A stretch of 64,000 nucleotides of DNA from an uncultured Candidatus Saccharibacteria bacterium (GTDB lineage Bacteria > Patescibacteriota > Minisyncoccia > Phycocordibacterales > UBA1006), in the NCBI GenBank assembly GCA_964507625.1, contig CAZDPR010000003.1, forward strand, positions 15,101-79,100, in the 5' to 3' direction. The notes under the pieces were generated by a model. That model was not told the origin of the DNA. It saw only the letters and a program-made list of their open reading frames with translations, and ran no database searches. Positions 1 to 54,019 of this stretch are shown here, piece after piece (the first letter of the stretch is position 1; every line of letters begins with the position of its first letter). The position numbers were made by a program, and so were the translations under genes.

Positions 1-13
1 TAAAAATGTACCT

Positions 14-463
14 ATGGCACAAAAACATCCGCAGTATGGGTACATGTCCAAACATCACTTGATACCCAAATTTAGAATCCGTGTTTATTACGGTATCACC
101 TTTCGCATGCCCCATAACACTATCCGATTGTGGCGGAAACGTCATGATGCATGGCATACCTTGTTTGGTGATAAAACTATTAATGAAATTATTCGTTATT
201 TAGGTGGACGCGTACACACCATTCAGTATTACCAGCAAGAACCTTGGAAAATTTTGTTTAAAAATAATTCTGCACACAAAGCACAAAAAATTCTTATTCG
301 TGCACGCAGAATGATTCGTAAACAATATGCACATTTAGAATTTGATCCAAATCTACAGTCTAAAGTAAGGCGGATCGAAACCTATATGAACAGTCGTGTA
401 TTCGGGAGAATTTATCTCGATCATCGATTTTCACCGAAACACATAAAAGCAAAGCAGAGATGA
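14..463 (+). CDS. Small basic protein with an HNH-endonuclease-like motif (HH..IP / N / H..WH), no Cys zinc ligands
   Basis: KHHLIPK...HNTIRLWRKRHDAWHTLFG matches the HNH pattern HH-N-H. The segment is about 45% GC against about 33% for the window. A terminator hairpin lies downstream at about 918-948. Confidence 0.35.
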   Translation: MAQKHPQYGYMSKHHLIPKFRIRVYYGITFRMPHNTIRLWRKRHDAWHTLFGDKTINEIIRYLGGRVHTIQYYQQEPWKILFKNNSAHKAQKILIRARRMIRKQYAHLEFDPNLQSKVRRIETYMNSRVFGRIYLDHRFSPKHIKAKQR

Positions 464-664
464 ACTCCCTGCTTTTTATTTCTTGATTCGATATCGTGCA
501 GTTTTTTTGGCAATGCGTTCTGGTTGATCCACCCACTGTTTACCCTGTGCCGTACCCTTATTTTTTGCACGACTGGTTGCAATTTTTTCACCCACCGTCA
601 GATGTTCGCGCGCTTTTTTGGGTAAATATCGACTATGTCCCACTTCGCCTGTATAGCCCCAATC

Positions 665-862
665 TTACTTGGTCCATCGTACCAAACTATTTGCATCAGA
701 TTTTTGACCGACATACCCACCTCCACGCTCTTTATATAATTTTACTGCATACTGCATGGCACGCGCAGAAAATTTACCCATTTTCTCAACGGCTTCCATT
801 TTGCAATATTCCCATAATGGTTCGTTATCTCGAACTGCAGTTTTCCCAACTTGTTTTTTCAT
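665..862 (-). CDS. Conserved small protein (KFSARAMQ.AVKLYKERGGGYVG...LVRWTK signature; resembles a phage/bacterial small-protein family, recalled as DUF5872-like)
   Basis: 65-aa charged ORF, more protein-like than the overlapping + ORF 496..864. The family assignment is from memory and unverified. Confidence 0.35.
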   Translation of the reverse strand: MKKQVGKTAVRDNEPLWEYCKMEAVEKMGKFSARAMQYAVKLYKERGGGYVGQKSDANSLVRWTK

Positions 863-962
863 AGTTTCAGTATAGCAAAAAACTTAATAATCCAATATAA
901 AATTTATAACTAATAAAAAACCGCACCCTGCATCAGGGGCGGTTATCGAGAAAAATCAGACA

Positions 963-1652
963 CTATTTCACATAGCTATTTTCTGGTTTTTTTGTGAGCG
1001 ATTTTTTCCGAATTTCTTTACGAAAATTTTTTGCTTTTCTCCATAAAGTAAAATATCGGTACATAATCTTTTCCTTTTGATGGATAAGGTTAGATGAATA
1101 CTCGTCAATACCATCAAAATACACCCTCATGTTATCCAGACTGAACAGATCTTCTTCTGGTCCATGATCACAAAACCAAGAATTTTTCAGAATATCTGTG
1201 TATTTTCCTGTTTCTTTGATGAAAATTGCAACCTTGTGTTCCACGAGGTCTTTTGGTTTTTTAGAAACCGGATCTAGTGGTCGATTGAGTACGATGTTTT
1301 GCACTAATTGTGCATACGCGACCAATCGGTCAGACATAATTTCTGGCATGTTCCCAGAATTTTCCTTGAACGCCCGTGCAAACAAAGTTTTAGAATCTTC
1401 GGTAATCAGTACCCAGGAAAGTCCTGGTTTCATCAATTTACCGTTGATAATGCCGGTGTTTACTACGGCACGATAGCCAAGATGCTCAAAAATATACATA
1501 TCCTGGTAATGATGGAGCCCTGTTACCCTGTCGGGAAACTCTTTACCCAAACGTTCAAACTCCCGTTTCTTTTCTTCTACAGAAACGAGTCGGAACCCTA
1601 ATTCCAAAAGTCGTTCACGCAAACTCGTGATGATAGTTGATTCTTTTTTCAT
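963..1652 (-). CDS. Hypothetical protein (229 aa)
   Basis: Long ORF in an AT-rich accessory region with no recognisable motif. Confidence 0.4.
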   Translation of the reverse strand: MKKESTIITSLRERLLELGFRLVSVEEKKREFERLGKEFPDRVTGLHHYQDMYIFEHLGYRAVVNTGIINGKLMKPGLSWVLITEDSKTLFARAFKENSGNMPEIMSDRLVAYAQLVQNIVLNRPLDPVSKKPKDLVEHKVAIFIKETGKYTDILKNSWFCDHGPEEDLFSLDNMRVYFDGIDEYSSNLIHQKEKIMYRYFTLWRKAKNFRKEIRKKSLTKKPENSYVK

Positions 1653-1728
1653 ATTACAAATTTTTCTTCACACTACCACACAAATACAAAAAAGCAACAC
1701 CCTAGTGATTACTAATAAGTTATCTGTA

Positions 1729-2373
1729 CTACACCATAATCATTAAAATCGCCATTCCAATCATTACCGCATTTTCTAAAACTGTAACCCATCCCAATGG
1801 TAATGCAGTCCATGTTCCTAAACAAACACATTGGACATGTTCACCTTTTTGAATAACCTTGAATACTCCCAGGGTAGTAATTCCTAAAACAATTATTGTC
1901 ACCCATGATGCAAAAGATACCCACACCCCCGACAAAAATAACCCTGCTAGTCCAAGTTCGATCGCTGGATATATTTGTGCATACAATGGAATTTTTCCTG
2001 CAAGTGGATCATATTCGATAAACGAACGAGCAAAATTCCCCCAAGTTATTGATTTAGAAACACCAAACACAAGAAAAAAGTATCCCATCAACCAGCGATG
2101 TATATTTTGTGTATCCGATATACCATTTTTAGTAATCAGCACAGTAAAAATTGTTGCTATCACAACAACACCCAATAACACAATTAGTGCTTTATATGTT
2201 TTCCAGACTGAATGGTTTGTTGTGCCGATTTTTTGCGCACCCTTTGGCGCATGGTGATCACAATAAAAATGCATCAACCCCCGATCATCAATTATTCGAT
2301 AAGTCGCATCCATAGAACATAGTTCACATTTCATATACTCGAGTATATCGCAAAACAAACACAAATAAAACAC
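1729..2373 (-). CDS. MauE/DoxX-family membrane protein with N-terminal Cys/His zinc-ribbon-like module
   Basis: N-terminus has C-x2-C-x18-C-DHH (CELCSMD...HFYCDHH). Several TM helices follow, with a CVCLG motif in the last TM segment. Confidence 0.45.
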   Translation of the reverse strand: MFYLCLFCDILEYMKCELCSMDATYRIIDDRGLMHFYCDHHAPKGAQKIGTTNHSVWKTYKALIVLLGVVVIATIFTVLITKNGISDTQNIHRWLMGYFFLVFGVSKSITWGNFARSFIEYDPLAGKIPLYAQIYPAIELGLAGLFLSGVWVSFASWVTIIVLGITTLGVFKVIQKGEHVQCVCLGTWTALPLGWVTVLENAVMIGMAILMIMV

Positions 2374-2532
2374 CTCCTAAGGGTGTTTTATTTAACTTAT
2401 CAATATAATCACTAACGCCAGTGCCAACATCCCCATCGCTGGTAATGCTTTTATGATATTATCGCGGACCTTGACATGCATCGCAATTGCCCCTTTATTG
2501 AAATTCTTTTAAATATGTGCTATACTATACAC

Positions 2533-2700
2533 ATGAAGATTAATGCAAAATCAATTAATAAACCACTTTCAGCATCTCAAAAAAAGGTGCTTAAATCTCG
2601 TGGGTTTGATTCTGCAATTGCATCATTTAAAATTGAAGGTGTGTCTTTTTCAAAAGACAAAATCTCCTCACTCCGTTCACGACTCCATTCTGTTAAATAA
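2533..2700 (+). CDS. VbhA/YhfG-like small antitoxin candidate (Fic-inhibitory S-x-x-x-E-G motif)
   Basis: 55 aa. AIASFKIEGVSF resembles the VbhA ALASQRLEGLEP inhibitory motif. Its own promoter is TTGAAA(2498-2503)-17-tgcTATACT(2521-2526), 7 nt before the ATG. A terminator hairpin lies at 2725-2752. Confidence 0.4.
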   Translation: MKINAKSINKPLSASQKKVLKSRGFDSAIASFKIEGVSFSKDKISSLRSRLHSVK

Positions 2701-2724
2701 TTCAATCATTGGATTAACATTTGC

Positions 2725-2752
2725 AACTGCTGCCTGCTGGACAGCAGTTTTA
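2725..2752 (+). terminator. Rho-independent terminator (AACTGCTG-loop-CAGCAGTT + T run)
   Basis: Perfect 8-bp stem followed by TTTT. Confidence 0.6.
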
Positions 2753-2817
2753 TTATAGTAATAGTATACCAAAAATAACCCGAGATGGTTTATTTTTATA
2801 CATTGCATTGATATCTT

Positions 2818-3033
2818 CTAGAAAAAAGTCTTTACATACAGTTGTTCTACTTTGGCGCGTGCCCATGGGGTTTTCCGTAAAAATACCAAACTGGATTTGA
2901 TACTGGGATCGATCTGGAAACAGTTAATATTCACCCGCATTCCCATTTCACCCCAACCCAAACGATCCACCAATTCCTGGAGGATCATTTCGAGTGTTTT
3001 GTTTTGGAAGGGGTTATTGTGAGATATTGACAT
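2818..3033 (-). CDS. DUF2132 (VF530-like) domain protein
   Basis: [25 protein letters not shown]...[16 protein letters not shown] matches the DUF2132 signature. Confidence 0.6.
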
Positions 3034-3078
3034 ATATATTTATTTATATTATATTAATACAAACAAAAAATCAAGAAA

Positions 3079-3498
3079 ATGACTCGAGAACAAAAACTAG
3101 CTCTTATTTCAATCGGTGCAACCTGGTGGGCAAATTACCTGGAAAAACCAGCCCGAGGAGATTCTGCAAACGGCGGAATCGGAGGATTCGGTTCTGTACT
3201 TGCCACCTTCGCAAAAATAACTGTCCAAAAACCTGTTACCAAAGATCAAATTGAACTTTTCAAAAAATCATTGACGGAACAAGTTGGACGAAACATTTAT
3301 GACACTCATCCAGATCAAACACTCACTATCGGGACTGACTGGGCCCCAGAAATGGAACTCGCAAACGCGTGCCATGAATCTGGAGTCAGTGGTACAGAAT
3401 TTCCTAGTAAAACCACTATGTGGATTAATTTTGGAAAAGGTACCATTTCGGTTGCTGTTGGTATTACAGACTCAAAGGTTATCTATACTGCAAAATAG
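3079..3498 (+). CDS. Hypothetical protein (139 aa)
   Basis: Own consensus promoter TTGACA(3027-3032)-17-TATATT(3050-3055) and terminator 3519-3545. Confidence 0.5.
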   Translation: MTREQKLALISIGATWWANYLEKPARGDSANGGIGGFGSVLATFAKITVQKPVTKDQIELFKKSLTEQVGRNIYDTHPDQTLTIGTDWAPEMELANACHESGVSGTEFPSKTTMWINFGKGTISVAVGITDSKVIYTAK

Positions 3499-3518
3499 AT
3501 TAGATACACAATGTACAA

Positions 3519-3545
3519 GGACGAACTTCGGTTCGTCTTTTTTGT
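3519..3545 (+). terminator. Rho-independent terminator (GACGAAC-ttcg-GTTCGTC + T7)
   Basis: Perfect 7-bp GC-rich stem with a TTCG loop, followed by tttttttg. Confidence 0.8.
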
Positions 3546-3609
3546 TAAGTAATAAGGAAAATAAAATAACCTGAAGTGGGTTATTTTATTTTAAGCCAAT
3601 TTTTATAAA

Positions 3610-3876
3610 TTATAATATCATTATCTCAATGAAACCTTTTGCAAGTAACTCTGTAGTTCCCTCGCGCAAATCATGCAGGTTTTCCCATAATTGAAAGGTT
3701 TGATAACTATCGTCTTCTGATATCATTTCCCATTCATCAGGTTCGACTTCTACATAATCATCATCTTCGGGCGTATATTCCTGACACATTACCAAGAATG
3801 GAAAATAAAAATCTGGGTGTTCGTGGCAGTATTTTAATAATTGAATAGCAAGGTCTCGGGTTATGTTCATAGTCAA
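3610..3876 (-). CDS. Highly acidic small protein (88 aa, about 21 D/E vs 4 K/R)
   Basis: Acidic run PEDDDYVEVEPDEWEMISEDDS, located directly downstream of the DpnI-like gene. Confidence 0.45.
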   Translation of the reverse strand: MTMNITRDLAIQLLKYCHEHPDFYFPFLVMCQEYTPEDDDYVEVEPDEWEMISEDDSYQTFQLWENLHDLREGTTELLAKGFIEIMIL

Positions 3877-3941
3877 AAATAGATCATTAGATTAATAATG
3901 ATCTGATCATTGATCAAAATAAAAATAAGATCAAGTCTTTT

Positions 3942-4706
3942 TTATGTAACTGTGTATAATCCTTTTCCTATAAATTCAAGGTACCCTTTATCTCGTAAGA
4001 ATTGTAATTGTTGGCGAATTTTTGCTTGAATATTATTGTTTTCTGGATGAATCTTTTTAAGTTCAGGTTCAAATGCATACATGTCAGTTAGGGTAAATTC
4101 TTTTTTATTTAAAGCATCAATACAATTCATAATATCAAGAATCCAACCTTTCGCTTCTACTTTTTTAATTTTTTTCAAAAAAACTGTCTTTTGCCATTTT
4201 TCTAAAACGTCTTTTTTAGAAATTTCTTTTCCATTTTCAATATAAAAAATTTGTCCCGCTTTTGGAATTTTAGAAAATAGAATATTTGAACCGACCCAGC
4301 CAGCCCGGCGAGCAGTTGGAGACAAAGGCTTCCTTTTTTCAATAATTTCAGATACGAAAAAATGCTTTGGTACCACAAAGAAATCATTCACCAATAATGT
4401 TTCTAAATATTCCATGAAAAAGAAATTTGGTTTTTCTGGAGAGTTAATTCTTTTAATCATTTCTGAATATGCTCCCGCAGCAACAGTTTTTCCAATCTTA
4501 CCTTTTTTAGATTTTAACTCAAAATCCTCGGTACATTTTTTGCAGTAAAAATCAGCTACGGGTTTATTATTTTCATATTCATTTATTAAATTTCCACAAC
4601 TGGGACAATAAATTTCACGTAAAACCCATCTCTCTGTAAGGATACGAGCTTTTTGACTTGCACTTGTGTAGTTCTCAGCTTCTTTAAGGTTGAATAATAA
4701 GTTCAT
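3942..4706 (-). CDS. dpnI-like: DpnI-family methyl-directed (G-m6A-TC) Type IIM restriction endonuclease
   Basis: N-terminus LFNLKEAENYTSASQKARILTERWVLREIYCPSCGN...ADFYCKKCTEDFELKSKKG matches the DpnI catalytic PD-(D/E)xK/E-x-K region. The C-terminal winged-helix part ends IRQQLQFLRDKGYLEFIGKGLY. Full length is 254 aa, as in DpnI. Confidence 0.7.
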   Translation of the reverse strand: MNLLFNLKEAENYTSASQKARILTERWVLREIYCPSCGNLINEYENNKPVADFYCKKCTEDFELKSKKGKIGKTVAAGAYSEMIKRINSPEKPNFFFMEYLETLLVNDFFVVPKHFFVSEIIEKRKPLSPTARRAGWVGSNILFSKIPKAGQIFYIENGKEISKKDVLEKWQKTVFLKKIKKVEAKGWILDIMNCIDALNKKEFTLTDMYAFEPELKKIHPENNNIQAKIRQQLQFLRDKGYLEFIGKGLYTVT

Positions 4707-4872
4707 ATGATTTAATTAATTATTGAAAATTTTCTGTTTAAATAAAATAGTTTAATATATCTAATACTATATATTTTCGCATAATTACAAACAATATTCA
4801 ACCCACCATTTTAAAACCAAAAAACCGCCTTTTCAGCAGTTCCTGTTATCTCCTCCTATTCCCACATTAAGC

Positions 4873-5163
4873 CTACGCCCTTTTATGAATCTCCACCTGT
4901 ACCATAACCATATCCCCTTCCCAGATATCCTGTGCCGTACGCACTGACTTTTTAATCGCAATCAAAAATGCTTGATCGCGCAAATGAGGCAACAATGACG
5001 TCTGCCAAGAGGTAGATCCAATGGTAATGGTCGCACGCAGTAATCCCTTGCCATACTGATCACGAATTGGACCAAATAATTCCCGCGGGACATAGACGAA
5101 ATACCACGGCGTATTCCCTGGCCATTTCCATACCTTTGCAGAAAAAGAAAATTCAGGTGACAT
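4873..5163 (-). CDS. DUF1905 domain protein
   Basis: VWKWPGNTPWYFVYVP...ATITIGSTSWQTSLLP...GDMVMVQV fits the DUF1905 pattern. Confidence 0.55.
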   Translation of the reverse strand: MSPEFSFSAKVWKWPGNTPWYFVYVPRELFGPIRDQYGKGLLRATITIGSTSWQTSLLPHLRDQAFLIAIKKSVRTAQDIWEGDMVMVQVEIHKRA

Positions 5164-5169
5164 AATGGG

Positions 5170-6144
5170 TTATTTTTTCTTCACTACCAATAATTGTGTC
5201 ACCAATGCCGTCATTTGATCTTTTTTCTCGGGCTTACTTTCTGCAATTAATAACGTCAGCGCGGTGAGCGTGCTCGGATTAATATTTCTATACCCCTTTA
5301 CCTGATATTTACGCAAAAACCAAATAAACGCCCATGCACCACTGCGTTTATTCCCATCAACGAACGGGTGGTTTTTCACCATAAAATATAACAAGTGTGC
5401 TGCTTTTTCTTCGGTAGTTGCATAAATTGGTTTTCCGTCGAATGACTGCATCACGTTTCCGATGATCCCCTCTACTGATCCCATTGATCGTTCTTGAGCA
5501 AAAATGTCAGTTGCTTCACCTTTTTTGATCAAGTCATTACGGAGCGTCGCAATCGAATCACGTAATTCATCTGCAGATACGGTGATTGATTTTTTGGCGG
5601 TTCCTACTGGGGTGAGTAATTCTTTGTCATATGCATCGAGTGATGCCCATGTGGTAGAAAATTCTTTTACTAATTCTAAAATACTTTTTGGATCTAATGT
5701 GGCATGTTCAGGGAGGAGGTTTTGGATTGCGGTAACGGTTTTGAGGAATTCCTGATGATTCTTTTGAATTTGCTTACGATTTATCACATAACCTTTGATA
5801 AAGTAATCTTTTAAGATCTTACTTACCCATTTACGAAATTCAATTGCTCGACCTGAATTCGTCCGATATCCAACTGCTAAAATAATATCCAAGGAGTAGA
5901 AATTAACGGGTTTATCAGAATTTGCAATGTGCATTTTTTGCACATTGCTTTTTTCACCAACTTCTTTTGATTTTAAAATATTATTAATGTGTTTAGTAAC
6001 TACTGATCGTTCTACTCCAAACACCTCGGCAATTTGTGCCTGAGTCGCCCAAATCGTTTCATGCGAAAAATCCCCACGGAACTGAATTTCTCCGGAAGAT
6101 GCTTGATATAACACTACAGAATTTTTAACGATTGGTTTTTTCAT
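5170..6144 (-). CDS. RhuM-family N-terminal domain fused to a Fic/Doc-fold domain (noncanonical motif HPFVDGNKRSG, Doc-like)
   Basis: The N-terminus is the COG3943/RhuM signature (FYSLDIILAVGYRTNSGRAIEFRKW). The C-terminal motif HPFVDGNKR is closer to the Doc kinase motif HxFxD(A/G)NKR than to the Fic motif GNGR. No in-cis S/TxxxE(G/N) inhibitory motif is present. Confidence 0.7.
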   Translation of the reverse strand: MKKPIVKNSVVLYQASSGEIQFRGDFSHETIWATQAQIAEVFGVERSVVTKHINNILKSKEVGEKSNVQKMHIANSDKPVNFYSLDIILAVGYRTNSGRAIEFRKWVSKILKDYFIKGYVINRKQIQKNHQEFLKTVTAIQNLLPEHATLDPKSILELVKEFSTTWASLDAYDKELLTPVGTAKKSITVSADELRDSIATLRNDLIKKGEATDIFAQERSMGSVEGIIGNVMQSFDGKPIYATTEEKAAHLLYFMVKNHPFVDGNKRSGAWAFIWFLRKYQVKGYRNINPSTLTALTLLIAESKPEKKDQMTALVTQLLVVKKK

Positions 6145-6186
6145 ATACTACAACCATTGAATCATATTTTGTGTTACCTGTATAGA

Positions 6187-6678
6187 TTATGTACCCAAAT
6201 AACTATCAAAATAAATCGCATGGCAGGTGTAGCCACCAGGGTTTTTTTGGAGATAGTCCTGATGATATTCTTCGGCTTTGTAAAATTTTGTAAACGGTTC
6301 CAGTGTTGTCACTACTGGGTGTGACCAGCGTTTTGAATCATTGACGATTTTGATAAAATCTTCTGCTTGTTTTTTCTCGTCATCGTTTTGATAAAAAATG
6401 GCACTGCGATACGATGTCCCGATATCGTTCCCCTGTTGATTCAAGGTGGTTGGGTTATGAATCTGGAAGAAAAAATCGAGTAATTTCCAAAATGATGTTT
6501 GTGTATCGTCATACGCGATATCGAGCGCCTCCGCGTGTCCAGGGTGGTTTTCATAAGTTGGATTATCATTATCACCACCGGTATACCCTGCAACAATATC
6601 CACAACCCCTGGCTGGGTGCGCATGAGCTCTTCCAATCCCCAAAAACATCCCCCTGCAAAATATGCGTGTTTGATCAT
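6187..6678 (-). CDS. msrA: Peptide methionine sulfoxide reductase MsrA
   Basis: GGCFWG active-site motif; start taken at MIKHAYFAGGCFWG. Confidence 0.85.
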   Translation of the reverse strand: MIKHAYFAGGCFWGLEELMRTQPGVVDIVAGYTGGDNDNPTYENHPGHAEALDIAYDDTQTSFWKLLDFFFQIHNPTTLNQQGNDIGTSYRSAIFYQNDDEKKQAEDFIKIVNDSKRWSHPVVTTLEPFTKFYKAEEYHQDYLQKNPGGYTCHAIYFDSYLGT

Positions 6679-6718
6679 ATTGATCAGTGTAGCACAAACT
6701 ATTCTGATACAAAAAACC

Positions 6719-6928
6719 CTATTGTAAATCAATAGGGCAAGTATTTTTTCCGATAATCTGATACCACAAACACCAACTCATTACTGCTTGGAAAAAGCAA
6801 AAAAGTGCACCAATAATCAAAACTACTTGTACCCAAGCTACGGTTGCAACAAACAACGCAAGTGCTAATAAAATAACCCCCAGTACTGCGCGCATAATGC
6901 GGTCAGCGGTTCCAATGTTTTTCTTCAT
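6719..6928 (-). CDS. DUF2892 (YgaP-C-like) small membrane protein
   Basis: MKKNIGTADRIMRAVLGVILLALALF followed by two TM helices. Confidence 0.55.
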   Translation of the reverse strand: MKKNIGTADRIMRAVLGVILLALALFVATVAWVQVVLIIGALFCFFQAVMSWCLWYQIIGKNTCPIDLQ

Positions 6929-7020
6929 ACCCCTACAGTGTACCCGATTTTGCACAGGATGAATACTTTTTTGAATTATTGACAAAATAGTTAAAAATAT
7001 ATAGAGTAAAGAAAAAAACT

Positions 7021-7350
7021 ATGGATCAAGAAAAGATAGATACACTCGTGTATAATGTTGCTCATTGGTTCTTTCTAAGAATCAAGGAGCAAAACATTGC
7101 AAAAACAATTCCTGGAGAAGATCTCGAAAGTTTCGAAAAAACTCTTATGTTGCATTTTCAAAATGAACTGATAAAAAGGAATGGTAGGCTCGCAATTCAA
7201 GAAGCTGATCGATTAATACTACAAATAATAATGGGAGCTGCGGAAATACACAATATTCCTAAAAAAATAATTCCCAAAGGTTTTTATTTTCTCATTAGAG
7301 TTGAGTATATGGATGTACACAATAAAAATATTTGCATATTAAGACTCTAA
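7021..7350 (+). CDS. Hypothetical protein (109 aa)
   Basis: ORF followed by candidate hairpins at 7354-7376 and 7386-7406. Confidence 0.35.
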   Translation: MDQEKIDTLVYNVAHWFFLRIKEQNIAKTIPGEDLESFEKTLMLHFQNELIKRNGRLAIQEADRLILQIIMGAAEIHNIPKKIIPKGFYFLIRVEYMDVHNKNICILRL

Positions 7351-7392
7351 TCCAAAAAGCTCGTAAGGGCTTTTTTATATACAAAAACACAC

Positions 7393-7863
7393 CTATTCGG
7401 TGTGTGTATCTTTTACGATACAAGCAATGTATCCTGTTTTTGGAATATCTTTACTACTCGTATGTAAAAATTTATGAAATGATAGTGTCATATCAGAATA
7501 TCTACTGAACCCAACAATAGAAGAACTTGCTTCCCTGTTCATAAAATCGTGATTCAAGATAAACACACGTGCAGTAAAAATTTTTTCATGCTGTTTGGTA
7601 TATTGAATTAATTGACTAGTCTGATTTTCATCAAGATATTCAATAGTTTTCTTTTGGTGTTGTATCCAATTTTGGAATCGTTCAAGAATTTTATGAAATG
7701 ATAACACTTTTTCATCTCTCTTGATTCGATTGAATTTATAGATATGTATGAGGTTGCCATCTATTTGATAACATTGGGACAGTTCCAAAATATTTTTTTC
7801 TATTTCCGTGTTTTGCTGATTTTCTAGTATTGAGTAGTTCGTTTTCATTTTTTTTTGGTTCAC
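7393..7863 (-). CDS. Hypothetical protein (156 aa)
   Basis: ORF only. Confidence 0.4.
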   Translation of the reverse strand: MNQKKMKTNYSILENQQNTEIEKNILELSQCYQIDGNLIHIYKFNRIKRDEKVLSFHKILERFQNWIQHQKKTIEYLDENQTSQLIQYTKQHEKIFTARVFILNHDFMNREASSSIVGFSRYSDMTLSFHKFLHTSSKDIPKTGYIACIVKDTHTE

Positions 7864-7897
7864 TGCTTTATATCACAAAAATATTAAAAAGTAAAAC

Positions 7898-8290
7898 CTA
7901 CCAGTTCATGATCGTAATTGTCACCTGGAGAACCGTTGCAAACAATACCCAGCCAAGGTACGGAATATTCACGAGTGTCACCCACCGCGCGTGAGGATAA
8001 ATTGCAATCATTGCCCAAATGAGTGTTCCAAGTACCAAAAATATATCAATCATCGCCAGAACATTATTCTGTAACCCAAACTGGATCGGTGTGAACAGTG
8101 CATTAAAAATGATATTAAGGATAAATGGGAGCGCTACGATAAAAGGAATTTGTCGCATAACGAGCAAATATCCTACATATCCAAAAGAAACAGCAATAAT
8201 TGCATAGAGTACGGACCATACGGGACCAAAAAGCCACCCCGGCGGTGCCCATGTTGGTTTTATTAAGGTTTGATACCACATTGATTGCAT
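7898..8290 (-). CDS. tspO: TspO/MBR tryptophan-rich sensory protein
   Basis: WYQTLIKPTWAPPGWLFGPVWSVLY plus 5 TM helices. Confidence 0.8.
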   Translation of the reverse strand: MQSMWYQTLIKPTWAPPGWLFGPVWSVLYAIIAVSFGYVGYLLVMRQIPFIVALPFILNIIFNALFTPIQFGLQNNVLAMIDIFLVLGTLIWAMIAIYPHARWVTLVNIPYLGWVLFATVLQVTITIMNW

Positions 8291-8296
8291 AGATGA

Positions 8297-8617
8297 TTAT
8301 TGAGGGAAAACGTCATCGATTCCCCCACCATTGGTGAGATTCGTAAATCCTGCTTGTGTTAATAATTGTTGTGCTGCCCCGGATCGCGCACCAGAACGGC
8401 AATACAGACAGATTGACGCGTCTTTGGGAACATCAGGCAATTGTCCTGCCATGATATTTTCTAGTGGGAAATTTATTGCATCAGGATGATGTCGTTCAGC
8501 AAATTCTGCCGGAGTTCGTACGTCGATATAGATCATATACATCAAGTATACCACAAATACATAAAAAGGCCCGAGCATTGCTGCACGGACCATAAACGTA
8601 AAGCCGTCCGAAAACAC
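8297..8617 (-). CDS. Rhodanese-domain (sulfurtransferase) protein with N-terminal TM anchor
   Basis: Active-site loop CRSGARS; DVRTPAEFAERHHPDAINFP. Confidence 0.75.
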   Translation of the reverse strand: MFSDGFTFMVRAAMLGPFYVFVVYLMYMIYIDVRTPAEFAERHHPDAINFPLENIMAGQLPDVPKDASICLYCRSGARSGAAQQLLTQAGFTNLTNGGGIDDVFPQ

Positions 8618-8736
8618 ACAAACACTTGGACTACTTCACACACTGTTTATTCTACCATATTGTACATATTTTGCAATATTTTACAGAGGTATTGACTTTT
8701 TTAATTAATTTGGTAATATAGATAAAAAAACAAAAG

Positions 8737-9051
8737 ATGATTGTAGTTTTCGCACACATTGGTGTAGGTATAGTAGAGCCACCAAGTGTTCTGATAACAC
8801 ACTTGGCCCAAATTCATGATGATATCCCCGTTATTCTTGTGGGGATAGAGAAACAAGAAATAGCCCAAGAAAAAATAGATTTCATTTTTCAAATTACTCC
8901 ATTCGTGGAACTATTTGAAAATGAGATAATAATAAGAAAATCTTCGATTCGAACCCGACACCTGGAAATAAAAACCATTTTTTCAGGTTCCCTTGCCGGA
9001 TACGACTTCCGCAGGTTTTCTAAAATTAAAGCCTCCTTAAGACCACCTTAA
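8737..9051 (+). CDS. Hypothetical protein (104 aa), low confidence
   Basis: Sits between a candidate promoter (TTGACT at about 8693) and a strong terminator at 9034-9062. Could instead be a non-coding transcript. Confidence 0.3.
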   Translation: MIVVFAHIGVGIVEPPSVLITHLAQIHDDIPVILVGIEKQEIAQEKIDFIFQITPFVELFENEIIIRKSSIRTRHLEIKTIFSGSLAGYDFRRFSKIKASLRPP

Positions 9052-9062
9052 GGATTTTTTTT
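9034..9062 (+). terminator. Rho-independent terminator (TCCTTAAG-accac-CTTAAGGA + T8)
   Basis: Perfect 8-bp stem followed by tttttttt. Confidence 0.75.
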
Positions 9063-9175
9063 ATACAAAAAAACTCCTACATTACTGTAGGAGCATATAC
9101 AAACAAGAGACGAAAGGAAATTTTCAATAACTATATCAAAATCTCAAAAAAATGCAAGGGGTAACAATTAATGTA

Positions 9176-9679
9176 TTATTCGCAAGAAATTTTAGTATAT
9201 ACCCGATCAGTTTTTGTGCCACTAGTAGCATCAGGAATGAGCAGGTTTCCAATTTCCAATAATGGATATACATGTTTTGTTATGGTTTCTTCAGAAAGAT
9301 TATAAAGCTCCTGTTCTTTTCCTGGAGCTCCTTCAATGATATACGAGAAAATAACAACAGCTTCAGTTCCTGAAATTGTTCCTGATAATGTTCCTTGGTA
9401 TCCATTGGTCATATCTGGACCTGATTGAGTTCCTGTTTTTGATCCTTCAAATTCTGTTTCGGTTCGTTTAGTGACCGTAATAGTTTCAGTAACAGCATAT
9501 GGTTCAGATTCTGTTGGAGTGGCTATATATCGATAACACAACGGGTTAGAAAGTGGTTCAGAAACGAGAGTGGTTAGGTTTGAATCATCGGAATGATCGT
9601 ATCGATTCAAAACACGCATAATGAGTAATGATGCTAATAAAAGGATGAAAAATGCTATGGGAATAATTATTTTTTTCAT
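9176..9679 (-). CDS. Secreted/membrane-anchored Thr/Ser/Gly-rich hypothetical protein
   Basis: MKKIIIPIAFFILLLASLLI signal/anchor, then low-complexity T/S/G-rich sequence. Confidence 0.5.
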   Translation of the reverse strand: MKKIIIPIAFFILLLASLLIMRVLNRYDHSDDSNLTTLVSEPLSNPLCYRYIATPTESEPYAVTETITVTKRTETEFEGSKTGTQSGPDMTNGYQGTLSGTISGTEAVVIFSYIIEGAPGKEQELYNLSEETITKHVYPLLEIGNLLIPDATSGTKTDRVYTKISCE

Positions 9680-9751
9680 AGTCCAAGTATACCATAATCG
9701 ACACATTGACAAAACATTAAAAATTGTGTATATTTTAAAAAACAATGATCT

Positions 9752-10123
9752 ATGAAAATTCATATGAACAGGATTTGGCTAAAAATTAACATTACCAACT
9801 CTTCATTCATTACTGTTCATATATGGGATAGTGAGAATGAACAACAGTTGTGTAGAAGTTTTTCAGACAAACTGGAGGGATTGAAAGCAAGTTTTCAATT
9901 ATTCTTTTTTGCAGAAACAATTTCCGCAGAAGAATTTTCTTTTCTGATTGAAAAAATACTCTTCCACGCAGAAATTCCTGAAACAACAGCAGGACAACAA
10001 GACTTACAAGATTATTTACTAGTTATTAATTGTCTTGCAGAAGGAAAAATAATAAATGCAACACAGAGGGTGAGATTTCGAAATAAAATACGAAATATTC
10101 AATTCCAAAATAAAACGCCGTGA
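9752..10123 (+). CDS. Hypothetical protein (123 aa)
   Basis: Consensus promoter TTGACA(9706-9711)-17-TATATT(9729-9734); terminator 10115-10138. Confidence 0.45.
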   Translation: MKIHMNRIWLKINITNSSFITVHIWDSENEQQLCRSFSDKLEGLKASFQLFFFAETISAEEFSFLIEKILFHAEIPETTAGQQDLQDYLLVINCLAEGKIINATQRVRFRNKIRNIQFQNKTP

Positions 10124-10135
10124 AAACGGCATTTT

Positions 10136-10597
10136 TTATTGAATAGCAATAATGCTGTAGCGAACTTCACCACGGGGTGTGGTCATTAAAAATTCATCTC
10201 CTACCTTTTTACCAAACATAGCAGATCCCATAGGTGAACTGGTAGAAATTTTTCCCTGGAGAATATCGGCTTCGGTTTCAGATACAATCATAAATGTTTT
10301 TTCAGTATCTTCTCCTTGTTTTTTTACTATGACGGTTGCACCTAATTCGACTATCCCTGAATCAGTTCTCTGAATAATTTCTGCTCGTTTCAAAATATCT
10401 TCGATTTCCATAATGCGTGATTCGTTTTTTCCTTGCTCATTGCGTGCTGCATGATATTCTGCATTTTCAGATAAATCTCCGAGAGCTCGTGCAGTAGCTA
10501 CCCGTTCCCCAATTGCATCCCGTAAAGTTGTTTTACGCTCAAAAAGCTCGGTTTCGAGTTCGGTCTTTTTTTCAAGTGTGATAAATTCTTTTTCCAT
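10136..10597 (-). CDS. greA: Transcription elongation factor GreA
   Basis: N-terminal coiled coil plus C-terminal FKBP-like domain; start at MEKEFITLEKK. Confidence 0.85.
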   Translation of the reverse strand: MEKEFITLEKKTELETELFERKTTLRDAIGERVATARALGDLSENAEYHAARNEQGKNESRIMEIEDILKRAEIIQRTDSGIVELGATVIVKKQGEDTEKTFMIVSETEADILQGKISTSSPMGSAMFGKKVGDEFLMTTPRGEVRYSIIAIQ

Positions 10598-10708
10598 AGA
10601 GATTATTATCCTATCATATTTTGGTAAATAAAAAAAGAAGCACAAAATTTTTTGTCAAGAAAAAGCCCTACCGTAACGGGGGCTTGAATTAAAAAAATAA
10701 GGATATTT

Positions 10709-13289: not shown

Positions 13290-13360
13290 GCTACCCGACA
13301 AGGACTCGAACCTCGATTAACAGGACCAAAACCTGCTGTCCTACCATTAGACGATCGGGT
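13290..13360 (-). tRNA. trnQ: tRNA-Gln (anticodon UUG)
   Basis: Acceptor stem TACCCGA/TCGGGTA with a U1:A72 pair. Anticodon stem GCAGG/CCTGT, loop TTTTGGT. T-arm CGAGG-TTCGAGT-CCTTG. Confidence 0.8.
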
Positions 13361-52261: not shown

Positions 52262-54019
52262 TTATTCAATTACCGCTTTGATACGTCGCACTCCTGCACT
52301 ACTCGCTTCTTCTTTTTGAATTTTGAAACTTCCAATGAGTCCTGTGTGTTCGATATGAGGACCACCACAGAATTCTTTTGAGATTGCAGAATCCAAATCC
52401 TGTCCGATGTAATACACGGAAACCATATCAGGATATTTTACTCCGAATTCCATTTCTGCACCGATTTGTTCTGCTTGTTCTCGTGGCATTTCTACGCGTT
52501 GCATTGGTAGATCTTGTGCAATCCATTCGTTTACCAACTTTTCAACTTCAGCTTTTTGTTGATCAGTCATTTTTACATCATGACTAAAATCAATACGGAT
52601 ACGCTCATCGGTAATATTACTCCCCCGCTGGTGCACATGATTACCGAGAACTTGTCGGAGCGCTGCGAGTAATAAATGATGTGCAGTATGAGAACGAATA
52701 ATTTTGTCAGACGTACCACCTAATCCTCCTTTGAATTTTTGTTCTGCACCTGATCGAGATAATTCCTGATGAACTTTCATTTCTGCATCAAACTTTGCAC
52801 GATCAATAGTAATCCCCTTTTCAGCTGCGAGTTCCTCGGTTAGCTCGATCGGAAATCCATAGGTTGTTGCGAGAATAAATGGATCGGTTCCCTTTTCAAA
52901 TTCTTTGAGTCCAGAATCAAGTGTTTTGTAAAATTTTCTTTCTTCTTCAGAAAAAACATTTCCTATTTCAACTAAAACACTTTCACCTTGTAATTCTGTA
53001 TAAATATTTTTATAAATTTCAACTACCGCTGAAACTATTGGAAATAAATTGAAAGAACCTTTAGTTAAATTATACCCTCTCAAAATTGCACGACGCATCA
53101 ACCTTCTCAAAATATATCCTTGGTCTTTATTGTTTGGGCGAACTCCATCTAAAATCATGAATACAGACGTTCGAACATGATCTGCGATAATCCGCCTTGT
53201 TTTAATATCAATATTACTTGAAAAATTATCAATTCTTTCATTTATTAGCAAAAAAATATCTGTATCATACGCTGTAACTTTACCTTGCATTACTGCAGTT
53301 AATCGTTCTAATCCTGCGCCAGTATCCACATTTTTCTGCGATAATTTGCCAATGACTTTCCCATCTTTTTTCTCGTATTCCATGAATACATCGTTCCAAA
53401 TTTCAATGAATTTTTCTTGGTTAATAAGATTAAGAAAATTATCATGAGCAATTTGTTGCCCCACGTATTCTCCTCGCATGTCATAAAACATTTCACTACA
53501 TGGACCACAGGGACCATTATCACCTGGACTCCACCAGTTATCGTCTGCCGGTAGTGCATAGATACGATGTTCTGGAATTCCAAGTTTCATCCAAATGTCT
53601 TTTGATTCTTGATCATATGGCGCGTTTTCATCTCCTGCAAAAATAGTCACCGCGAGCCGTGCAGGATCAAGTCCGAGACCTTCATCTTTACTCGTTAGAA
53701 ATTCATAGCTCCATTTGATTGCATCATCTTTGAAATAGTCACCCAATGACCAATTCCCTAACATTTCAAAAAATGAAAAATGTCGATTGTCACCAATATC
53801 ATCCAAATCCCCTGTTCGTACACATTTTTGACATGATGCAAGACGTTTTCCCAGTGGGTGCGACTGTCCCATGAGATACGGTACGAGCGGTTGCATTCCC
53901 GCCGTATTAAATAATACCGACGGATCATTTTCTGGAACTAGTGACGCAGACGGTAAAATCGCGTGACCGCGTTGTTTAAAGAATTCCAAGAATCGAGATC
54001 GAATTTCTGATGATTGCAT
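52262..54019 (-). CDS. alaS: Alanyl-tRNA synthetase (catalytic + editing domains; no C-Ala domain)
   Basis: N-terminus MQSSEIRSRFLEFFKQRGH; editing-domain HTAHHLL and CGGPH motifs; 585 aa. Confidence 0.85.
   Translation of the reverse strand: MQSSEIRSRFLEFFKQRGHAILPSASLVPENDPSVLFNTAGMQPLVPYLMGQSHPLGKRLASCQKCVRTGDLDDIGDNRHFSFFEMLGNWSLGDYFKDDAIKWSYEFLTSKDEGLGLDPARLAVTIFAGDENAPYDQESKDIWMKLGIPEHRIYALPADDNWWSPGDNGPCGPCSEMFYDMRGEYVGQQIAHDNFLNLINQEKFIEIWNDVFMEYEKKDGKVIGKLSQKNVDTGAGLERLTAVMQGKVTAYDTDIFLLINERIDNFSSNIDIKTRRIIADHVRTSVFMILDGVRPNNKDQGYILRRLMRRAILRGYNLTKGSFNLFPIVSAVVEIYKNIYTELQGESVLVEIGNVFSEEERKFYKTLDSGLKEFEKGTDPFILATTYGFPIELTEELAAEKGITIDRAKFDAEMKVHQELSRSGAEQKFKGGLGGTSDKIIRSHTAHHLLLAALRQVLGNHVHQRGSNITDERIRIDFSHDVKMTDQQKAEVEKLVNEWIAQDLPMQRVEMPREQAEQIGAEMEFGVKYPDMVSVYYIGQDLDSAISKEFCGGPHIEHTGLIGSFKIQKEEASSAGVRRIKAVIE

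Follow-up and report, generated by a model that had tools for sequence, protein, structure and literature searches.

What does the DNA around a gene for a DpnI-type restriction enzyme represent in an uncultured Candidatus Saccharibacteria bacterium: a single defence island, an ordinary neighbourhood of small genes, or a set of positions at which genes are exchanged? We analyzed a stretch of 64,000 nucleotides (nt) carrying this gene, dpnI, in its left part (hereafter the window; all coordinates are positions within it, and L and P labels denote related loci and proteins). An earlier note on this DNA had described its first 6150 nt as one mosaic defence and accessory region. A variable stretch of that kind is present, but it is not a single island ending at 6150: defence genes occupy slots between anchor genes, and variable content continues as far as about 10130. 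We consider it probable that positions 1 to about 10130 form a recombination-prone accessory stretch in which defence genes have been exchanged and have then decayed, and that the intact dpnI gene belongs to a two-gene cassette. In the picture that we propose, the gaps between anchor genes would be filled by different defence genes in each genome; a solitary DpnI and a RhuM-Doc protein would be the intact cargo here, the DUF5872, DoxX_2 and Fic genes would be wrecks, and a 55-amino-acid (aa) candidate antitoxin would have survived.

The anchor genes kept in relatives encode an epimerase, ORF1, DUF5872, ORF3, DoxX_2, VF530 and DUF1905 (ORF, open reading frame). The following features of the window mark the anchors and the boundaries of the stretch.

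14 to 463, plus strand: ORF1, 149 aa, very basic (pI 10.9), with the HNH-like pattern H14-H15...N35...H44...H48
476 to 862, minus strand: pseudogene of the DUF5872 family, 128 codons, with an in-frame TAA at 665-667
963 to 1652, minus strand: ORF3, 229 aa, lineage-specific backbone gene, no Pfam, NCBIfam or PADLOC match
2818 to 3033, minus strand: anchor gene for VF530 (=DUF2132), a small DNA-binding protein, Pfam 3.3e-29
4807 to 4849, minus strand: 43-nt terminator/promoter junction, 86% identical to L113 13646-13688, with different flanking genes
4873 to 5163, minus strand: DUF1905 protein, 45% GC, Pfam 9e-20, starting 6 nt after the RhuM-Doc stop
6187 to 10130, no strand assigned: continued accessory stretch, non-syntenic up to GreA, with MsrA, a YgaP-like protein, TspO, rhodanese and six unknowns

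As relatives for synteny we used the closest genome records with the window's PBP; these come from uncultured Patescibacteria, under the labels Candidatus Saccharibacteria, Paceibacteria or Parcubacteria. The order Dus-DnaX-(177 aa)-PBP-GreA, with TopA and SerRS further on, is collinear in L003 and L005-L008, and synteny of the window with its relatives resumes only at GreA (10136-10645). No gene from window positions 1-10130 was found after GreA in these collinear relatives. L008 continues beyond GreA with FtsE/X, HisRS, FtsA and PriA; L007, in which GreA was not detected at this place, continues beyond PBP with a glycosyl hydrolase, CtpA and L9; and L003 has the order PBP-GreA-ORF3 homologue-LysS-like gene. 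Because the ORF3 homologue of L003 lies directly beside GreA, about 8.5 kb (1653-10130) are extra in the window.

Between conserved flanking genes, L113, L116 and L123 carry defence systems that differ from those of the window. L113, the closest relative found (ORF1 82% identical), retains the left side as epimerase-ORF1-DUF5872-ORF3 homologue, followed by an unrelated 215-aa gene at the MauE position and then by DoxX_2 and VF530. Between VF530 and the 43-nt junction, the window holds ORF7, ORF8 and dpnI, whereas L113 holds CBS, DUF4357, a 305-aa gene and a 1361-aa T5orf172/ResIII/Eco57I enzyme, a block resembling a restriction-modification (R-M) system. The junction itself overlaps a terminator-like site (4844-4820) and a promoter-like site (4836-4808). 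L116 has two N6_N4 methyltransferases and a 416-aa HNH-motif nuclease, with DUF1905, DoxX_2, an epimerase and VF530 around them, and L123 has Mrr, Fic and Type I R-M genes beside DoxX_2; VF530 adjoins a variable slot in L113, L116 and L096. Positions 5003-11864 of L123 make up a compact defence cluster (Mrr, an ORF5 homologue, a class-I-like Fic, a Cys-rich 98-aa protein, a membrane protein, HsdS, two unknowns, HsdM and Bro-N), with the Fic pair embedded in the Type I R-M locus. The L116 system was considered as a DpnII-like GATC system and dropped: both methyltransferases belong to PF01555, its nuclease carries a motif of the HNH type, and no feature links it to GATC.

Decay is visible in several of the genes that had been taken for separate units. 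The small DUF5872-like protein described earlier is a 65-aa ORF that corresponds to the front half of a 128-codon gene broken by a TAA; this half gives a weak Pfam DUF5872 match, and the full 128-codon reading is 85% identical in aa sequence to an intact 129-aa gene of L113, which has GAA where the window has TAA. Gene debris also fills window positions 2374-2810, as follows.

2398 to 2532, minus strand: C-terminal DoxX_2 remnant, ~40 codons, 51-56% identity by tblastx to the DoxX_2 genes of L113 and L123
2533 to 2700, plus strand: ORF5, 55 aa, basic, with an S-F-K-I-E-G motif, candidate orphan antitoxin of the FicA/VbhA type
2677 to 2751, minus strand: stump of a class-I-like Fic gene, last 24 codons, KTAVQQAAVANVNPMIELFNRMES and stop, agreeing with 19 of 24 residues of the L123 Fic C terminus

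The upstream part of DoxX_2 is lost from the window, and the frames there are full of stops. L123 shows the order DoxX_2-(Mrr)-ORF5-Fic, which is the order of the stumps in the window, and positions 6014-6221 of L123 correspond to window positions 2546-2753 at 91.8% nt identity. The simplest history would start from an ancestor resembling L123; deletions would have removed Mrr and the greater part of both DoxX_2 and Fic, leaving ORF5 as an orphan.

ORF5 most likely starts at 2533, behind a near-consensus promoter at 2498-2526 (10/12 matches, with a TG extension). The proposal that it is a VbhA-like orphan antitoxin is supported by genomic context but not by family models, searches of Pfam, NCBIfam, PHROG and PDB having returned no match to ORF5. 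When 1.84 billion representatives were scanned in full, one true homologue emerged, P0130, at 82% aa identity; a second match, P0131, is a repeat in a 785-aa secreted-type protein and was judged to be spurious low complexity. In L123, P0130 converges with a 24-nt overlap on a 197-aa Fic gene, whose product is a relative of VbhT (2.6e-13) that carries the canonical HPFREGNGRIIR motif and no (S/T)xxxE(G/N) of its own. That pattern is found in the small protein beside it (SFKIEG, in both ORF5 and P0130), although the convergent orientation is atypical. The orphan-antitoxin reading thus draws its support from a sole homologue that adjoins a Fic gene and from the last 24 Fic codons kept in the window.

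Two alternatives bear on this part of the locus. The whole stretch might be an ordinary lineage-specific neighbourhood, its small genes being “dark matter” of the Candidate Phyla Radiation (CPR) and DpnI and RhuM-Doc being isolated acquisitions, with no hotspot involved; we regard this as improbable. Such a neighbourhood would suit the conservation of backbone genes in L113 and L116, a GC content that mostly equals the genome mean, the lack of an integrase, an att-like repeat and a nearby tRNA, and the different housekeeping genes found past GreA in each relative, in the manner of general rearrangement; the lost synteny may only mirror the distance of the available relatives. The neighbourhood reading fits poorly with restriction systems that differ among the same anchor genes in the independent relatives L113, L116 and L123, with a 43-nt junction common to the window and L113 next to cargo that differs up to VF530, with three gene stumps in 2.4 kb that point to repeated insertion and deletion, and with an assembly graph that branches at 5161-5190. 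The region's proteins are present in one NCBI contig and in the Logan assemblies of SRR13355620, and two of these Logan contigs end at 5161-5190 with an exact 30-nt overlap; this branch between RhuM-Doc and DUF1905 suggests strain-level variation at that junction. ORF5, in turn, might be no antitoxin but a small conserved ORF, or non-coding DNA with S-x-x-x-E-G by chance, which we find doubtful yet well worth entertaining. No HMM (hidden Markov model) or PDB match ties it to VbhA/FicA, we estimate that a few percent of proteins of 55 aa would contain the three-residue motif by chance, its gene in L123 converges on Fic and does not precede it in an operon, and 92% nt identity could reflect recent transfer and not selection. 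Chance would, however, have to place the sole homologue against a VbhT-related Fic gene that lacks the inhibitory motif, to preserve the junction with the Fic 3' end in the window, and to supply a near-consensus promoter in front of a frame whose length was kept at 82% aa identity.

Exchange between anchors, which we prefer for the stretch as a whole, also has evidence to contend with. With synteny relatives this distant (PBP at 53-72% aa identity) and with the readiness of CPR genomes to rearrange, part of what appears variable is divergence. No integrase or transposase domain appeared in the domain records of the window's called genes, no convincing flanking direct repeats were found, the nearest tRNA lies only at 13291, and only dpnI and DUF1905 deviate in GC. 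The activity and methyl-dependence of DpnI are, moreover, predicted from its sequence. A classical integrated island was rejected for the lack of an integrase, adjacent tRNA and att site or repeat, and integron gene cassettes for mixed orientation and the lack of an attC-like repeat.

The intact cassette in the slot between VF530 and the junction consists of dpnI, an intergenic element and a small partner gene, in that order of transcription.

3942 to 4706, minus strand: dpnI, predicted Type IIM N6-methyladenine-dependent restriction endonuclease, PD-(D/E)XK domain plus winged helix
3871 to 3941, minus strand: dpnI-partner intergenic element, with TTGATC (3934-3929), 13 nt, and GATCAATGATC (3915-3905)
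3610 to 3870, minus strand: ORF8, 86 aa, net charge -17, pI 4.05, short form of the Patescibacteria-only partner family A

The assignment of the nuclease to the DpnI family was borne out by Pfam DpnI (9.9e-75, residues 1-179) and DpnI_C (1.3e-33, residues 184-251), by PADLOC mREase_II (5.5e-103) and by a full-length match to PDB 4ESJ (residues 4-254 to query 1-251, E 1.3e-85). The stretch PVADFYC..C.E.FELKSKKG and the four-cysteine module CP.CG...C..C are identical or conserved with respect to 4ESJ, and the catalytic residues of PD...(D/E)xK are presumably those named in the R.DpnI structure papers. DpnI cuts Gm6ATC DNA and needs a Dam-negative host. Given homology at the level of 4ESJ, the enzyme of the window would cut incoming DNA in which both strands carry Gm6ATC. 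Such DNA would belong to phages or plasmids coming from Dam-positive hosts, or to phages encoding their own Dam. The enzyme would need no methyltransferase of its own. From DpnI biology we infer that the host lacks Dam and leaves GATC unmethylated, and no ORF with the amino-methyltransferase motif (D/N/S)PP(Y/F/W) was found within the window.

From the 338 relatives confirmed in a metagenome scan, 80 dpnI loci were obtained, with DpnI identities of 69-81%; a number of the contig names point to groundwater samples, and no DpnI was found in viral contigs. GATC is not depleted in the window (observed/expected 0.96), and the dpnI gene of the window contains none. Across 67 unique homologous genes, 30 GATC sites were observed, compared with 129 expected under a Markov-2 model and 89.7±7.8 after synonymous-codon shuffling, so that dpnI coding sequences avoid GATC ~3-4 fold; their flanks stand at 0.78 of expectation. 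At L121 and L122 (2516-3964), dpnI is preceded, at a distance of 10 nt, by the end of a gene for a LexA-type repressor (LexA_DNA_bind plus Peptidase_S24), and the order is LexA-DpnI-ORF8 homologue; the cassette may thereby be connected with the DNA-damage response.

Almost all of the 80 dpnI loci have a small ORF on the same strand 0-70 nt after the dpnI stop, and these ORFs come from unrelated families. Partners were counted at 77 dpnI loci.

Family A, ORF8-like: 23 of 77 loci
Family B, 67-aa Cys4 zinc ribbon: 20 of 77 loci
Family C, 60-75-aa helical protein, the same domain as the C-terminal half of long family A members: 8 of 77 loci
Family D, nucleotidyltransferase-like, fused to an N6_N4 methylase at two loci: 5 of 77 loci
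Family E, 51-57 aa: 4 of 77 loci
Family F, a second zinc ribbon: 3 of 77 loci
Other partners: 14 of 77 loci

The nearest DpnI relative carries a different partner family in 48 of the 77 cases; partners are therefore exchanged faster than DpnI diverges. At L067 (2194-3189) and L068, the gene directly behind dpnI joins a family D nucleotidyltransferase domain of the Pol-beta type to an N6_N4 DNA methyltransferase, and the specificity of this methylase cannot be Dam-like if the DpnI is active.

Family A comprises at least 308 homologues, none functionally annotated and every taxon-labelled one from Patescibacteria; among the members listed, one has a precomputed Pfam match (PF09107) and the others have none. 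Its members come in forms of 86-95 aa and 141-149 aa. They lie directly after dpnI in 20 of 72 loci, in addition to P0125, P0090 and P0087, and when sampled from the ORF8 side the family follows DpnI in four contexts. Family A also follows a DGQHR-motif protein beside a C5 methylase in L106 and the HNH-motif nuclease of L116. Since it stands behind DpnI and behind other nuclease-type genes, it is a companion of restriction nucleases generally. The L106 locus (GCA_013350265.1, Gracilibacteria) has genes that translate only with code 25 (UGA=Gly); its ORF8-family gene follows the 480-aa DGQHR protein near the C5 methylase and an SMEK_N protein, with a degenerate copy of the intergenic element between. 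An AlphaFold2 (AF2) model of the long form of family A was confident (predicted local distance difference test, pLDDT, 90; predicted template-modelling score, pTM, 0.76) and found no Foldseek match in PDB or BFVD; the sequence profile had no PDB match either, and the family, including ORF8, was absent from the viral contig collection. ORF8 was rejected as a DpnD, as neither it, its long form nor the other partner families matched PF14207. Families A, B and C are acidic, and some partners are neutral or basic. As a working hypothesis, the partner most likely modulates or accompanies the nuclease.

The intergenic element carries the only GATC cluster of its kind in the window, with five GATC in 48 nt at 3882-3932. 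At the same place, related loci have TTGAC(T/A)T, 13 variable nt and GATCAAnGATC, and 44 distinct full elements were found next to dpnI elsewhere; the box and the GATC pair stand at exactly equal spacing in 31 of 68 distinct loci. The spacer and the adjoining third-codon positions of dpnI vary freely, and the two blocks do not. In five loci the box, as TTGACA, lies inside the last dpnI codons with its distance to the GATCs kept. The element precedes families A, B, C, F and some others and is absent before D and E. GATCWWNGATC occurs elsewhere about 6 times in the 983 kb of fetched DNA, never with a TTGAC box at the fixed spacing. In L026 (379), L028 (887) and L083 (50), another complete element is located upstream of dpnI, before a small ORF (MSEIKEILIE..., MTTNIQGLL...), and two element units thus bracket dpnI there.

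The geometry of the element suggests that it is the partner's promoter. It would be of the sigma-70 type, with a -35 box TTGACT, a 17-nt spacer and a -10 box AAnGAT. The partner ATG lies 4-8 nt past the second GATC in 34 of the 44 elements (mode 5); with the -35 and -10 boxes so placed, the A of the ATG would therefore be at about +1, and the mRNA would be leaderless in most loci, a kind of start that this genome appears to favour. The copy in the window has the -35 box TTGATC and a 34-nt leader with a 9-bp hairpin, AGATCATTA/TAATGATCT (3904-3881), which follows GATCAATGATC and is itself followed by a T-run and the ORF8 ATG. This hairpin version is common to L116 and the window at 88.7% nt identity, despite a different upstream nuclease.

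The two GATCs across the -10 led us to hypothesize that the element responds to adenine methylation or to DpnI, and that the dpnI cassette of Patescibacteria holds a built-in sensor for foreign Dam methylation. We offer this sensor tentatively and think it, on balance, unlikely. In a normal Dam-negative cell, the GATCs of the element would be unmethylated. The Dam of an invader would methylate them, and the two GATC-reading domains of DpnI would then bind the sites, or DpnI would cut them. The result would be a switch in partner expression, or a break at the very junction where partners are exchanged, after which the interchangeable, mostly acidic partner would modulate the nuclease or the response of the cell. 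If true, this would add a new regulatory layer to methyl-directed restriction and give a function to a CPR-only protein family of more than 300 members.

Both the element and the partner admit simpler or different explanations. The element may have nothing to do with methylation and be an ordinary constitutive promoter, with a dpnI terminator in some loci and with GATCs that are incidental, an account that we take to be quite possible. Its geometry fits a leaderless promoter, such starts are apparently widespread in this genome, families D and E do without the element, and a related element with partly kept GATCs precedes partner A behind non-DpnI nucleases. This account leaves unexplained that conservation is highest in the two GATCs while the 13-nt spacer and dpnI third-codon positions are free, that the canonical TATAAT-like -10 used elsewhere in the region never takes the place of AAnGAT here, that the neighbouring gene encodes a GATC-reading enzyme and itself avoids GATC, and that the -35 box of the window holds a GATC as well. 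Three observations count against our own interpretation of the element: only 3 of the 6 positions of the proposed -10 box, AAnGAT, agree with TATAAT; the hairpin and T-run before ORF8 in the window could end transcription from the element, or could be the dpnI terminator; and the element also occurs, partly degenerate, behind the non-DpnI nucleases of L106 and L116, and thus its GATCs may not be tied to DpnI specificity. As for the partners, ORF8 and the others might be specific inhibitors or immunity proteins, DNA mimics that check DpnI when GATC methylation appears; this seems to us rather unlikely. They always lie on the same strand immediately 3' of a nuclease gene, families A, B and C are acidic (ORF8 carries its charge of -17 in 86 aa), and the predicted fold is confident, compact and without a known relative, all as one would wish for such proteins. 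Unrelated families nevertheless stand beside nearly identical DpnI, and partner A stands behind unrelated nucleases, which is not what the co-evolution of a specific inhibitor with its target predicts; in addition, some partners are neutral or basic, and a DpnI in a Dam-negative cell needs no immunity.

The remaining genes of the first 6 kb are as follows.

1729 to 2373, minus strand: membrane protein of the MauE/DoxX type, Pfam MauE 5.7e-17 over residues 91-213, 62.7 bits against a cutoff of 27
3079 to 3498, plus strand: ORF7, 139 aa, with its own promoter (3027-3055) and terminator (3517-3540)
5170 to 6144, minus strand: RhuM-Doc fusion, candidate defence gene PDC-S23, RhuM PF13310 7e-18, Fic 7e-11

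Most families on the gene list of the earlier note were borne out, although several details and boundaries were not. Pfam matches bore out DUF2132 (VF530) at 2818-3033 and DUF1905 at 4873-5163, and the MauE/DoxX-like protein does have the proposed zinc module, an N-terminal zinc-ribbon-like CxxC...C.HH. The ORFs listed at 963-1652, 3079-3498 and 3610-3876 are present, and HMM searches with them matched no Pfam, NCBIfam or PADLOC family. In the putative HNH protein at 14-463 (ORF1), the HH...N...H...H pattern is invariant in all 4 known sequences, but no HNH HMM matches; nor did ORF1 match anything in Pfam, NCBIfam, PADLOC, PHROG or a PDB profile search. A word-seeded search of 5.8 billion clusters gave only 3 relatives of ORF1, its AF2 model has a pLDDT of 45, too low to be of use, and it is syntenic in L113 and in an unrelated context in L114. 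ORF3 has one homologue only by the word-seeded search (57% identity, in L003 between GreA and the LysS-like gene) and one ~42% identical at the same position in L113. Of the unknown ORFs among which the earlier note suspected hidden defence or toxin components, ORF1 and ORF3 are lineage genes kept in relatives, with no sign that they are defence cargo. ORF7 has the best promoter of the region (11/12 positions) and a 10-bp-stem terminator after the gene; it matches phrog_8937 (7e-12), a phage protein family without assigned function, has no PDB relative, and was not found near dpnI in the 80 other dpnI loci.

The RhuM-Doc/Fic protein proved to have both RhuM and Fic domains and a full-length PDC-S23 match (PADLOC PDLC04965, 1.7e-104 over residues 3-320 of 324). 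Its Doc-type motif HPFVDGNKR lies at residues ~259-267, and it is the sole ORF with a Fic motif in the window; the match to TIGR01550 DOC_P1 reached 31.8 bits, below the 38.65 cutoff. Fic domains of the Doc type act by modifying proteins, and the most likely role of RhuM-Doc is that of a toxin of the Doc kinase kind, which would modify proteins as a second line of defence, judging by its family and by the neighbourhoods of RhuM-DOC fusions, which lie near R-M systems and are candidate toxins (PMC3710099).

The composition of the region departs from what had first been reported. The window has a GC content of ~36%, and the first 900 bp, given earlier as about 45% GC, measured 37-40%; the extremes of the region are dpnI (26-32%) and DUF1905 (45%), and GC elsewhere is mostly at the genome mean. 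ORF orientation in the first 6 kb is mixed, as noted, but several units of the supposed patchwork of single-gene units are gene wrecks (the DUF5872 pseudogene and the DoxX_2 and Fic stumps). Of the promoters and terminators attributed to these units, terminator-like sites are enriched (19 compared with 5.6±2.5 in shuffled sequence), but promoter-like sites are not (28 compared with 33±5). The DoxX_2 remnant at 2398-2532 (minus strand), the Fic remnant at 2677-2751 (minus strand) and the GATC cluster at 3882-3932 were not part of the earlier description.

Gene starts in this genome appear to be largely leaderless and free of Shine-Dalgarno (SD) sequences. Among 61 long ORFs of the window, TANNNT ends 4-8 nt ahead of the ATG in 20 (background 10.5%), and only 3 have an SD-like motif (background 6.8%). 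A 27-nt sequence occurs in three copies (854-880, 2748-2774 and 9671-9697); read on the minus strand, it contains a -10 (TATACT) and, after 6 nt, ATGAAAAAA. In the middle copy, which abuts the Fic stump, ATA takes the place of ATG, and this copy looks like a dead gene start. Core genes of the window encode TopA, SerRS, DnaX, two PBPs, DnaK, CysRS and AlaRS. AlaRS (52262-54019) has only 585 aa, whereas the usual bacterial alanyl-tRNA synthetase has ~870 aa, and its shortness fits a reduced CPR genome.

DpnI and RhuM-Doc in a variable patch of a small genome are members of known families, and at that level the locus is ordinary. It nevertheless provides a clean example, in bacteria that are not culturable alone, of defence genes swapped between fixed anchors and then eroding, with a Fic toxin gone and its candidate antitoxin surviving. 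DpnI is widespread in groundwater Patescibacteria; these are therefore predicted to be Dam-negative, and their phages or hosts to be often Dam-positive. New here is the combination of a GATC-free dpnI, a double-GATC promoter-like element and an interchangeable partner that includes an acidic family of at least 308 members, an architecture that could be tested as a methylation-responsive switch. Our literature search yielded no paper on DpnI and Patescibacteria together; the dpnD literature that it returned was pneumococcal or streptococcal genetics and genomics.

These systems can be set beside known ones. The RhuM-Doc protein resembles other RhuM-DOC fusions (PDC-S23) in its RhuM N-domain, its HxFx(D/N)(A/G)NKR motif and its restriction-gene neighbourhood (PMC3710099), but here it lacks an adjacent Type I R-M system, PrrC-like gene and Phd-like antitoxin and has DUF1905 6 nt downstream. 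Compared with the class I Fic pair VbhT-VbhA (PDB 3SHG/3ZCB), ORF5 is likewise small, contains the inhibitory pattern S-x-x-x-E-G and has a homologue that abuts a VbhT-matching Fic; it differs in having no sequence-profile similarity to VbhA, in genes that converge with overlapping 3' ends and do not form an antitoxin-first operon, and in a toxin that is cut down to 24 codons in the window.

In pneumococcus, alternative restriction systems occupy one locus, and dpnC is followed by dpnD, of unassigned function (PMC4471560). The cassette described here is similar in that its nuclease is a full-length homologue of R.DpnI, the product of dpnC, solitary and without a methyltransferase, with a second gene of unassigned function after it; similar, too, to the pneumococcal DpnI/DpnII/DpnIII locus is the use of one chromosomal slot by alternative restriction systems in related genomes (PMC4471560). 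It differs in that the window partner is not DpnD and that the partner slot of Patescibacteria is filled by at least six unrelated families in a CPR host, and it may differ also in the conserved TTGACT-N13-GATCAAnGATC element that the CPR loci have between the two genes. The Neisseria dam-replacing gene drg (PF06044) belongs to the same family, at 42% identity over the full length, and likewise implies a Dam-negative host. Its locus was considered as a second example of the element and set aside: it has neither the downstream element nor a small partner and continues with a methyltransferase-like ORF with a DPPY motif. Dam-sensitive promoters with a GATC in the -10 region exist, such as that of the IS10 transposase, and act in Dam-positive hosts, where they sense hemimethylation after replication. 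The element of the dpnI cassette is like them in that its GATCs lie over the proposed -10 (-9 to -6) and extended -10 (-16 to -13), but its host is expected to be Dam-negative, and methylation would come from the invader.

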